Shown here piece by piece: positions 20,962-22,585 of a DNA stretch of 25,334 nt. The translations under genes were made by a program, and so were the position numbers. The first letter of the stretch is position 1. Each line of letters opens with the position of its first letter. The notes beneath the pieces are model-generated. The model was not told where the DNA came from, ran no database searches, and was given only the letters and a program-made list of their open reading frames with translations. The stretch is from a virus (Duplodnaviria > Caudoviricetes): the IMG/VR virus record IMGVR_UViG_3300042987_002695, positions 1 to 25,334 of that record; one strand, given 5' to 3'.

Positions 20962-21135
20962 ATGGAAATTTTCACGGTGGAAGAGTTTCAGGAAAGGTTC
21001 GATGAACTGATTGAAAGAGTAGAAGGTGGAGAGCACATAGGTATTGTGAATGAGAATGGAAAGGCAGTGGTTATGATGCCTGCCGATGATGATCTCATAC
21101 GAATACACACTGAATTAAACAACGAAGCACCTTGA
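20962..21135 (+). CDS. Phd/YefM antitoxin-like small protein (57 aa)
   Basis: Not in ORF track. MEIFTVEEFQERFDELIERVEGGEHIGIVNENGKAVVMMPADDDLIRIHTELNNEAP matches the Phd N-domain pattern (E....F.ELI.RV..GE.I.I...G..VV..P). Confidence 0.65.
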   Translation: MEIFTVEEFQERFDELIERVEGGEHIGIVNENGKAVVMMPADDDLIRIHTELNNEAP

Positions 21136-21160
21136 CAAAGAGTTCCAAATCCTCTATAAT
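21132..21160 (+). promoter_or_regulatory. Sigma70-type promoter for the tRNA cluster
   Basis: TTGACA (21132-21137), 17 nt, TATAAT (21155-21160). Confidence 0.88.
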
Positions 21161-21176
21161 TGATTTGGGTTTTTAT

Positions 21177-21248
21177 GGTTCTGTCGCCTATTGGTTAAGG
21201 CCGACACCTTATAAGTGTCTGAACGGAGTTCAATTCTCTGCAGAACCA
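21177..21248 (+). tRNA. trnI: tRNA-Ile, anticodon UAU
   Basis: Acceptor GGTTCTG/CAGAACC + A73, D-stem GCC/GGC, anticodon stem GACAC/GTGTC with loop CT-TAT-AA, T arm CGGAG-TTCAATT-CTCTG. No encoded CCA. Confidence 0.9.
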
Positions 21249-21252
21249 TCGT

Positions 21253-21326
21253 GCAGGTTTACCCATCTGGTTGAAGGGACCGATCTCATAAATCGGCAGA
21301 GGTCAGTTCAATCCTGACAACCTGCA
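21253..21326 (+). tRNA. trnM: tRNA with CAU anticodon (elongator Met most likely; Ile2 not excluded)
   Basis: Acceptor GCAGGTT/AACCTGC + A, anticodon stem CCGAT/ATCGG with loop CT-CAT-AA, T arm GTCAG-TTCAATC-CTGAC. Lacks initiator hallmarks (1:72 is paired, no GGG/CCC). Confidence 0.88.
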
Positions 21327-21329
21327 CTT

Positions 21330-21408
21330 GCCGTGGTTCAAAACTTATGATAGAATCCAGTGGGGCATCTATCAAACAGTTTTGATTTAGTCTCACAAAC
21401 ACACGGCA
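21330..21408 (+). ncRNA. Candidate structured small RNA in the tRNA cluster
   Basis: Nested stems GCCGTG/CACGGC, TCAAAACT/AGTTTTGA and TGATAGA/TCTATCA. Not a cloverleaf. Strand assumed from context. Confidence 0.5.
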
Positions 21409-21411
21409 TTC

Positions 21412-21440
21412 TTGACCACTACAACTCTTTGAGTTATAAT
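21412..21440 (+). promoter_or_regulatory. Sigma70-type promoter for tRNA-Leu
   Basis: TTGACC (21412-21417), 17 nt, TATAAT (21435-21440). Confidence 0.8.
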
Positions 21441-21464: not shown

Positions 21465-21747
21465 GGGGCGGTGGTGGAATCGGTAGACACACCAGACTTA
21501 TGAAAATTGAGCCTCATTTGGGAAACCTTATGAGTGTCCCTCCTCAAATTCGGGGAAACCTTTAAAATGGCAATCCCGAGCCAAGCATCGTAAGATGAAG
21601 GTGTAGAGACTAGACGGGGAGCACCTAAACTGAAAAGTATGGTGAAGGTATAGTCCAGACCACAAACTCTATGAGGCGGCGAAAGTCGTAGTGGTAAGAA
21701 AATCTGTTGAGCGTATGCTCGTGCGAGTTCAAGTCTCGCTCGCCCTA
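21465..21747 (+). tRNA. trnL: tRNA-Leu(UAA), intron-containing (exons 21465-21499 and 21699-21747)
   Basis: Joined exons give GGGGCGG...GGTAGAC...CAGA-CTTAAAA-TCTG, variable arm GAGC-GTAT-GCTC, T arm GCGAG-TTCAAGT-CTCGC, then TCGCCCT-A. Confidence 0.93.
21500..21698 (+). ncRNA. Group I self-splicing intron (trnL-UAA / IC3-like), 199 nt, no ORF
   Basis: Follows U34 and ends in G. P1 CUU/GAG; P AATTCGGGGAAA; Q AATCCCGAGC; R GTAGAGACTA; S AAGGTATAGTCC; P3 CTCCTC/GGGGAG; P7 GACTA/TAGTC. GAAA-capped P2, P8 and P9 stems. Confidence 0.93.
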
Positions 21748-21751
21748 CTTA

Positions 21752-21791
21752 AAATAGTAAACTTTATAAATAGTAATAGCGTTTACTATTT
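21752..21791 (+). promoter_or_regulatory. 11-bp hairpin with late promoter TATAAATA (21765-21772) in its loop, abutting the HNH start
   Basis: AAATAGTAAAC (21752-21762) / GTTTACTATTT (21781-21791). ATG at 21794. Confidence 0.75.
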
Positions 21792-21793
21792 AA

Positions 21794-22255
21794 ATGAATA
21801 GCAGATATACTTATAGCGAACAAGAACTTCGTGAAGCAGTAAAAAAATCAACTAGTATTAGGCAAGTTTTAGAAAAACTTGATATAGTTCCTGCTGGTGG
21901 GAATTACCAAACAACTAATAGAAGAATTAAAAAATTAAATATTGATATATCTCATTTTACTGGTCAAGCTTGGAACAGGGGAAAAGTTATTGGTCCAAAG
22001 AGACCTATTGAAGAATACTTGATAGAAAATTCTGTGGTTCAATCTTTTAAATTAAAAGGTCGTTTAATCGCAGAAGGTCTTAAAGAACACAAGTGTGAGT
22101 GCTGTGGCATAACTGAATGGAATGGAAAACCAGCACCGATTGAACTTGACCATATAAACGGCAACCATCACGATAATCGTTTAGAAAATCTTCGTATCTT
22201 GTGCCCCAATTGTCACGCTCAAACAGATACTTACAGGGGTAAGAATAAAAAATAA
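21794..22255 (+). CDS. Free-standing HNH endonuclease (putative homing endonuclease)
   Basis: CECCG...LDHINGNHHDNRLENLRILCPNCH zinc-binding HNH motif with a helical N-terminal domain. Confidence 0.92.
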   Translation: MNSRYTYSEQELREAVKKSTSIRQVLEKLDIVPAGGNYQTTNRRIKKLNIDISHFTGQAWNRGKVIGPKRPIEEYLIENSVVQSFKLKGRLIAEGLKEHKCECCGITEWNGKPAPIELDHINGNHHDNRLENLRILCPNCHAQTDTYRGKNKK

Positions 22256-22264
22256 ATATAAGAT

Positions 22265-22585
22265 ATGGGAAAACCCCCTATGTCTTATCGTATCGATCAC
22301 GCATATTGTTGGTATAATGACGGCACTATGATCGTAAAAATGTACTTCATCAATCACATTCCCTTTACATTTGACGAAATGCCTGAAGGTCACTTATACG
22401 ATCAAGACTTGTGTAGGGAAGCAGATAAAAATCGCACATATGATCCAGAAGACTTGTATAGATCTTCATTCTACCTTATAGATGAAGAAGCACATCCATT
22501 TCTATTTCCAGTAGAATTAGAAAATCCAGAAGACCTTCCAGAAGACGACGAAATTGATTTTGACGGTGGTGATTTGACTTCATAA
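22265..22585 (+). CDS. Acidic hypothetical protein
   Basis: Intact ORF filling the gap, with ATAAATA at 22252-22258 upstream. Start could be the second Met (MSYRID). Confidence 0.7.
   Translation: MGKPPMSYRIDHAYCWYNDGTMIVKMYFINHIPFTFDEMPEGHLYDQDLCREADKNRTYDPEDLYRSSFYLIDEEAHPFLFPVELENPEDLPEDDEIDFDGGDLTS

Follow-up and report, generated by a model that had tools for sequence, protein, structure and literature searches.

Collaborative homing has been described for the psbA intron of cyanophage S-PM2 and the free-standing endonuclease F-CphI (PMC6083498, accessible text) and, in the accessible parts of two further reports, for a T3/T7-like case (PMC10055350, PMC3984707). So far it rests on few examples, all of them in protein genes, and how ORF-less introns of tRNA genes move is an open question. 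In addition, F-TflI and F-TflII, together with F-TflIV, are reportedly HNH enzymes of the T5 tRNA cluster, and I-Ssp6803I is said to be a homing endonuclease that resides in a tRNA-fMet intron and is specific for the anticodon region. No phage tRNA gene with a group I intron and a partner nuclease was found in the open-access literature to the extent that its texts are accessible, and the word "intron" has no occurrence in the accessible main text of PMC7162821.

Here we describe such an arrangement in a 25,334-base virus record (IMGVR_UViG_3300042987_002695; completeness estimate 10%), the whole length of which we call the window. A tRNA-Leu(UAA) gene, trnL(UAA), split by a group I intron without an ORF, is followed by a gene for an HNH endonuclease, hereafter HNH; L numbers denote stored loci that were compared with it. 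The reading that we favour, with a probability of roughly 0.65, is facultative collaborative homing, in which HNH would cut the DNA of the trnL(UAA) anticodon arm and immunity would be conferred by either the intron or a swapped tRNA allele.

The locus and its source

The window encodes a T4-like tail module, its trnL exons are 92-95% identical to the intron-less tRNA-Leu of cultured Synechococcus phages, and the public DNA runs that contain at least half of the locus (n = 14) are freshwater or drinking-water metagenomes. Judging from sequence, the window phage is likely a freshwater cyanomyophage, and the wider group of loci probably belongs to T4-like cyanobacterial phages. TTA makes up 205 of the 465 Leu codons across nine large structural ORFs of the window, which fits a use for tRNA-Leu(UAA). 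An assembly artefact as the cause of the linkage between the tRNA and HNH genes is ruled out by a public DNA run, which may be that of the source sample and has a 639-nt contig matching 21638-22276 with 0 differences, together with L002, which is identical at the locus.

Table 1. Features of the locus, in coordinates of the window
Feature	Position	Strand	Remarks
tRNA-Ile(UAU)	21176..21250	+	same tRNA cluster
tRNA with CAU anticodon, called Met	21253..21327	+	same tRNA cluster
Optional 83-nt hairpin element	21329..21411	+	3' of the CAU tRNA, 5' of the trnL promoter; z -3.65
Sigma-70-type promoter-like site, TTGACC-17-TATAAT	21412..21440	+	directly 5' of trnL; 11/12 consensus matches
tRNA-Leu(UAA) gene, split	21465-21747	+	discriminator A; CCA not encoded; from sequence, Rfam and ARAGORN
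tRNA-Leu(UAA) 5' exon	21465..21499	+	ends GACTT
ORF-less group I intron, 199 nt	21500..21698	+	after anticodon U34; terminal G
tRNA-Leu(UAA) 3' exon	21699..21747	+	long variable arm; starts AAAATC
Hairpin	21752..21791	+	2 nt before the HNH start; -11.3 kcal/mol, z -3.3, 0/200 shuffles
Late promoter motif of T4 type, TATAAATA	21765-21772	+	upper stem and loop of the hairpin
Free-standing HNH endonuclease gene, 153 aa	21794-22255	+	phrog_10822, E 2.6e-53
Downstream gene, phrog_4134, synteny anchor	22265..22585	+	conserved; directly after trnL in HNH-less relatives

Ahead of the tRNA cluster lie a lone Phd-like antitoxin gene (20962-21135) and then a perfect sigma-70 consensus (21132-21160). The promoter-like site next to trnL (21412..21440) is kept in relatives, and we infer that it functions as a promoter. 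The 83-nt element that precedes it (21329..21411) has no Rfam match inside it and is missing from L003, L006 and L007; copies 82-100% identical to it stand beside differing trnL alleles in 29 stored loci, many of them repeat contigs, and we treat it as context rather than as a member of the intron-HNH pair. Other HNH subfamilies are found in the same cluster, after tRNA-Ile(UAU) or at tRNA-Thr(UGU) (L216 and L233, each at ~1850-2270; L063, L066 and L321), and the HNH genes that follow tRNA-Ile(UAU) are also preceded by a TATAAATA hairpin; each tRNA of the cluster may have a nuclease of its own. Moreover, window-type trnL is followed in some loci by a short HNH of an unrelated family; this trnL is intron-less in L107 (1227-1649) and intron-bearing in L317, L328 and L321, and the short HNH of L107 and L317 gives no tblastn match with that of the window.

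The intron, the nuclease and the spacer between them

The initial annotation had described an intron-containing tRNA gene, with no ORF in the intron, and an HNH gene starting 46 nt past it, and both statements are exact: trnL(UAA) at 21465-21747 contains a 199-nt group I intron, no coding-strand ORF of at least 40 aa lies wholly inside that intron, and precisely 46 nt separate 21747 from the ATG. A 45-aa antisense frame in the intron is not considered a gene. The intron scores 63.4 bits against Rfam RF00028 (gathering score 50), and joining of the exons on either side of it restores the anticodon UAA. It has the conserved P3-P4-P6-P7 core and the terminal G, and at the 5' splice site P1 closes with a U.G pair. 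Across 14 relatives, P1-P9 pairing holds in 97.4% of 738 cells, a percentage favoured by the fact that P1-P9 was hand-drawn on the window's own copy; compensatory change is seen in 26 of the 53 P1-P9 pairs. Of 500 shuffles, 0 match this result, and slid controls give 29-43%. ARAGORN labels of Tyr, Ser and His at intron loci were rejected as products of mis-set cuts, the Tyr call for the window tRNA being due to a cut mis-set by 2 nt. Versions of the intron of 260 nt, with about 60 extra bases, occur in L307, L330 and L334.

HNH is composed of an N-terminal helical module (~1-58) and a C-terminal CxxC...H-N-N...CPNCH zinc/HNH module (~79-152), and residues C101, C104, H120, N128, N132, C137, C140 and H141 are invariant in 39 relatives. 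In profile searches, Pfam HNH_3 and HNH score just below their cut-offs. The structure model has a pLDDT of 91.5; its fold matches are weak, to HNH and HTH-like folds, and are DNases, whereas Foldseek returned no match at E<=0.001 (best VIA Z 5.0) and the sequence gave nothing significant against solved structures and NCBIfam. By both profile and model the protein is an HNH enzyme, and a GIY-YIG domain, as in a T-arm cutter of the SegB type, was not found.

The spacer holds, as sequence and predicted fold, a late promoter within a hairpin over the start region. A late-like motif is present in 51 of 53 distinct spacers and the hairpin at p<=0.05 in 34 of the 53, several of the failures being due to a start codon placed too early; this regulatory hairpin is preserved across spacers despite their differing sequences. 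No Shine-Dalgarno sequence was identified for HNH. A CTTAAAA copy past the tRNA end was considered as an operator and rejected, as it is found in just 13 of the 53 spacers and also in one empty site. Hairpin and late-promoter control has been described for I-TevI, I-TevII, I-TevIII, SegB and MobE (PMC2988022, accessible text). By analogy with T4, early read-through RNA would fold the hairpin over the HNH start, and the protein would be made from the late promoter alone.

Association of HNH with trnL(UAA) and with the intron

Among the best 80 of 401 HNH relatives in IMG/VR, the set that was examined, 79 lie beside or inside trnL(UAA) or its intron. In 72 of the 80, trnL(UAA) ends 44-71 nt upstream of HNH, with the intron in 17 and without it in 55; in the rest, two contigs end within the intron, three have HNH inside the intron, two have the tRNA downstream or on the opposite strand, and one has no upstream DNA. 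A fourth intron-encoded copy is found in the huge phage LR756511. Of the intron-internal genes, those of L082 (sense) and of L072 and L073 (antisense) occupy the P6 region, and that of L078 a position ahead of P4. The last HNH codons of L082 (1924-2710) appear to form the P6 3' strand, with the stop codon in the conserved J6/7. In L078 (2857-3699), HNH lies within a trnL(UAA) intron of a different core and has an in-frame TAG near its start, which hints at stop-codon reassignment or at a gene that is broken. More distant relatives (five cultured phages, S-CRM01, T5) reside in tRNA clusters beside other isoacceptors, where they adjoin Leu(UAG), Leu(CAA), Ile, Asn or Glx tRNAs. In a cyanobacterial genome (L545, G087; 1404-1928), a frameshifted gene of this HNH family immediately precedes a chromosomal trnL(UAA). 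From its sequence context, HNH has the appearance of a homing endonuclease that is free-standing and specialised on trnL(UAA).

The relation between HNH and the intron is looser. In a sample anchored on the downstream gene, in which 14 of 80 loci lacked a scoreable trnL and 66 were left, an optional HNH gene lies between the conserved neighbours in 13 of the 66 (L210 and L306 being examples of empty sites). The initial annotation had taken intron and HNH for a candidate unit that spreads together and had called for a co-occurrence check; in this sample the intron is present in 2 of 13 loci with HNH and 9 of 53 without (p = 1). In addition, L003 has a 100%-identical HNH behind a different, intron-less trnL, while L306 has exons identical to the window's and the intron, but no HNH. 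An obligate unit is thus rejected. Where window-type exons carry the intron, HNH is absent from 28 of 38 loci, and a pattern search of IMG/VR finds HNH after intron-less trnL 72 times and after intron-bearing trnL 28 times, with patterns that differ in strictness. The edge of the HNH cassette lies at the tRNA 3' end, and the cassette reassorts with tRNA bodies; one DNA run has the same intron end and exon together with a variant HNH that shows 43 letter differences. The 153-aa type appears to reassort freely with the intron, whereas a 241-aa sister subfamily is accompanied by it in 12 of 12 contigs, over three exon bodies. The pairing of intron and HNH is facultative, and HNH subclades may differ in specificity.

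Exclusion of the intact allele

Window-type exons without an intron are found in about 1500 stored stretches, and HNH follows in 0 of the 108 that are scoreable, with the window's HNH protein as the query (as in the other allele counts and in the intact-RGACTTAAAATCY counts) and with loci of less than 250 nt downstream dropped (12 of 120 intron-less window-type, 7 of 49 intron-bearing and 5 of 120 with other bodies). With the intron, the same exons precede HNH in 10 of 38 loci (raw p=5e-7). When only syntenic and dereplicated loci are considered, the counts are 4 of 19 with the intron and 0 of 40 without (p=0.0085), the syntenic intron-less controls amounting to 41 of 108 for window-type exons and 7 of 63 for other bodies; in the closest clade alone, they are 3 of 12 and 0 of 8, which is not significant (p=0.24). 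Seven intact window-type alleles, with an anchor protein 77-81% identical, occur in the same clade as the window, and none has HNH. Two other exon bodies give the same picture, with HNH behind 0 of 63 scoreable intron-less copies, whereas their intron-bearing copies do have HNH. A pattern search of all IMG/VR for the intact window allele followed by the HNH GGNY codons gave 0 matches, the 3' spacing of this combined pattern fitting 9 of 10 intron loci as well as the window. Frequent occurrence of HNH next to trnL that has the same sequence but no intron, which the initial annotation had named as the finding that would speak against it, was thus looked for directly: IMG/VR yielded 0 cases, and the metagenomes one, with a variant allele (L547).

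The joined exons give RGACTTAAAATCY in 25 of 25 scoreable loci with both intron and HNH, collected with a pattern that fixed AAAATC beforehand, and in 4 of 4 intron-encoded copies. Among intron-less neighbours, intact RGACTTAAAATCY is present in 19 of 44 loci without HNH and 0 of 11 with it (p=0.010), and among distinct 17-mers in 5 of 14 without HNH and 1 of 28 with it (p=0.011), where RGACTTAAAATCY was chosen after the intron-bearing exons were seen and the contigs are related, not independent. Across the collection, it is intact beside HNH in 3 of 69 loci; L346, L373 and L380 fall outside the 69 because of a position filter, and their allele is without RGACTTAAAATCY, as are the further intron-less trnL(UAA) genes beside HNH in L076, L081 and L545. 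The exceptions that keep intact RGACTTAAAATCY beside HNH are L340, L345 and L366 in IMG/VR and, in the metagenomes, whose total of HNH loci was left uncounted, L547, where an intact HNH stands behind an intron-less RGACTTAAAATCY-bearing allele. The HNH of L547 is 79-81% identical to the branch of L033, L036 and L038, and the same allele type has the intron in L036. An HNH-like fragment lies just upstream of an intact window-type allele in L204; L548 and L358 were false pattern matches, with no HNH by tblastn. In a quick tree, window-type exons with the intron turn up with HNH on six or more separate branches, for the most part close to swapped alleles.

The depletion of the intact motif beside HNH suggests that HNH likely cuts anticodon-arm DNA, and, since the split exon halves coexist with HNH, any excluded site has to span their junction. 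The target predicted from these alleles is probably a 13-bp core across the intron insertion site. The earlier proposal of a cut near the anticodon therefore survives in the form of a predicted target that spans the insertion site, detached from the obligate unit of which it had been a part.

One may argue that HNH is tied to the slot behind trnL but cuts elsewhere, at a T-arm motif or at the empty-site junction, and that the intron is a passenger with a lineage or habitat pattern. SegB does recognise a TpsiC motif (PMC2330249, accessible text), and this argument would also account for a cassette edge at the tRNA 3' end that reassorts with tRNA bodies, the lack of an overall intron-HNH association, L547, and the distant relatives beside other tRNAs. 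However, it predicts HNH beside the abundant intact window-type alleles, where none was found, and the same 3' exons adjoin HNH once the intron is present; this lifting of the exclusion by the intron argues against a SegB-like T-arm target. Moreover, four HNH copies sit inside introns at the anticodon site. We consider cutting elsewhere unlikely.

A model of facultative homing

In facultative homing, the reading that we prefer, a break in a sensitive allele would be repaired from the donor, so that the tRNA allele, be it the intron or a swapped body, would be copied, often together with HNH. HNH would be kept only where trnL is immune, through the intron or through a tRNA body whose anticodon stem is altered. 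It is very improbable, in our view, that HNH is mostly inert or hitchhiking and that the tRNA alleles are shaped by host anti-tRNA defences. Phage tRNAs that counter tRNA-cleaving defences of the host have been described (PMC10644984, accessible text), and non-standard alleles do occur without HNH (37/48), but the spliced intron allele yields the same RNA as the intact allele; since splicing erases the difference between the two alleles, a cause at the RNA level would not separate them. The catalytic and zinc residues are also invariant, and the hairpin is kept with different sequences, which speaks against an inert gene as well.

In the family to which one freshwater Synechococcus genome belongs, an intron-less trnL pattern is present in 149 of the 201 genomes and HNH in 1 of the 201, and RGACTTAAAATCY is present in 24 of 31 trnL loci fetched from this putative host family in a non-random draw, which makes host trnL genes candidate substrates. 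The least probable explanation, that HNH is mainly a weapon against the host trnL(UAA) gene or its RNA and the phage tRNA a replacement, would find its targets in these genes, but the late-promoter hairpin points to late expression, which fits homing better, the fold matches are DNases, and an intron would be no shield for spliced RNA.

Movement of the intron

A single 114-nt contig, assembled at a depth of 42 from a lake metatranscriptome (X19), runs from the 3' part of the intron through 30 letters to base 21500, joining the side of window position 21667 to 21500 without an extra G. The 30 letters are the 3' end, including the terminal G, of 16 stored sister introns, each of which is followed by the 3' exon in DNA, and the joint is absent from four DNA runs. 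This contig is the junction of a full-length circle, formed by a sister intron and not by the window's own. It shows that both splice sites are used; exon ligation is outside its reach, and exon-exon joins in RNA runs are indistinguishable from intron-less phages. Another RNA run (X15) covers intron bases alone with 0 differences, its gap at the flanks carrying no weight. Full-length intron circles arise through 3' hydrolysis together with an attack on the 5' splice site, and they have been proposed to serve mobility (PMC6274462, accessible text), although a review states, in its accessible part, that there is no direct evidence for an RNA route of intron movement.

A difficulty for facultative homing is L282, whose intron is 97% identical to the window's in a tRNA body that is only ~58% identical, with no HNH. 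Simple repair with exon co-conversion appears to fail here, and the case calls for an RNA route or for repair that makes do with very short homology. In L282, L249, L057 and L320, tRNA-Leu bodies with a short variable arm and only 51-59% identity to the window's exons contain introns that match the window's at 91-97%. That the intron was captured recently from a host is not supported, the best bacterial match, a cyanobacterial trnL intron, being 74.6% identical over 130 nt.

Implications

We propose more tentatively, as a possibility short of an even chance, that a widespread HNH family targets the anticodon arm of tRNA-Leu(UAA) in an arms race, with escape by body swap or intron uptake. If this is true, hypervariable phage tRNA alleles would have a selfish-DNA cause apart from host anti-tRNA defence, and the classic trnL intron would have a mobiliser. 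In addition, nature would display a series from free-standing through intron-adjacent to intron-encoded nuclease, in three or more arrangements, and full-length RNA circles would be a possible second route between unlike tRNA bodies. Homing at this locus would also offer a second explanation for phage tRNA divergence in the anticodon stem. The locus family provides substrates, both sensitive and immune, that occur in nature, along with a predicted 13-bp core and every stage from a free to an intron-encoded nuclease, so that the model is testable with one 153-aa protein and a few oligonucleotides.

Comparison with known systems

As in the S-PM2 psbA/F-CphI system, a group I intron that lacks an ORF adjoins a free-standing nuclease whose predicted target spans the insertion site, and the intron-encoded HNH descendants found here agree with a prediction of the collaborative-homing model. 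In contrast to the F-CphI case, the host gene is a tRNA gene and the predicted enzyme is a small zinc/HNH protein rather than Endo VII-like. Furthermore, most HNH carriers appear to be immune through a swapped tRNA allele, and not through the intron as in S-PM2. With T4 SegB, HNH shares the predicted role of a free-standing homing endonuclease in a phage tRNA cluster, a putative hairpin-masked late expression and a presumed co-inheritance of tRNA genes, whereas SegB is a GIY-YIG enzyme that recognises a T-arm motif of many tRNAs and has no intron (PMC2330249, accessible text). For HNH, the alleles implicate one isoacceptor and its anticodon arm.

The likeness to T5 lies in T5p073, which is encoded directly after tRNA-Ile and shares residues 74-151 of HNH at 55% identity; the N-terminal half of HNH has no match there, and the T5 record gives no F-Tfl name. 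A full-length HNH relative in an Enterococcus phage is labelled hegA/F-TflIV.

The window intron, which we take to be of subgroup IC3, has the after-U34 position, the short CUU/GAG P1 and the compact core of bacterial trnL introns. Unlike these, it resides in a phage and belongs to a phage group of its own, 85-97% identical, and HNH was found near 0 of 106 bacterial intron-pattern loci, only 16 of which are called real trnL introns. Finally, HNH would resemble I-Ssp6803I in being a homing endonuclease aimed at the anticodon region of a tRNA gene, from which I-Ssp6803I presumably differs in being intron-encoded, in its bacterial chromosome, in another tRNA and in another nuclease fold.
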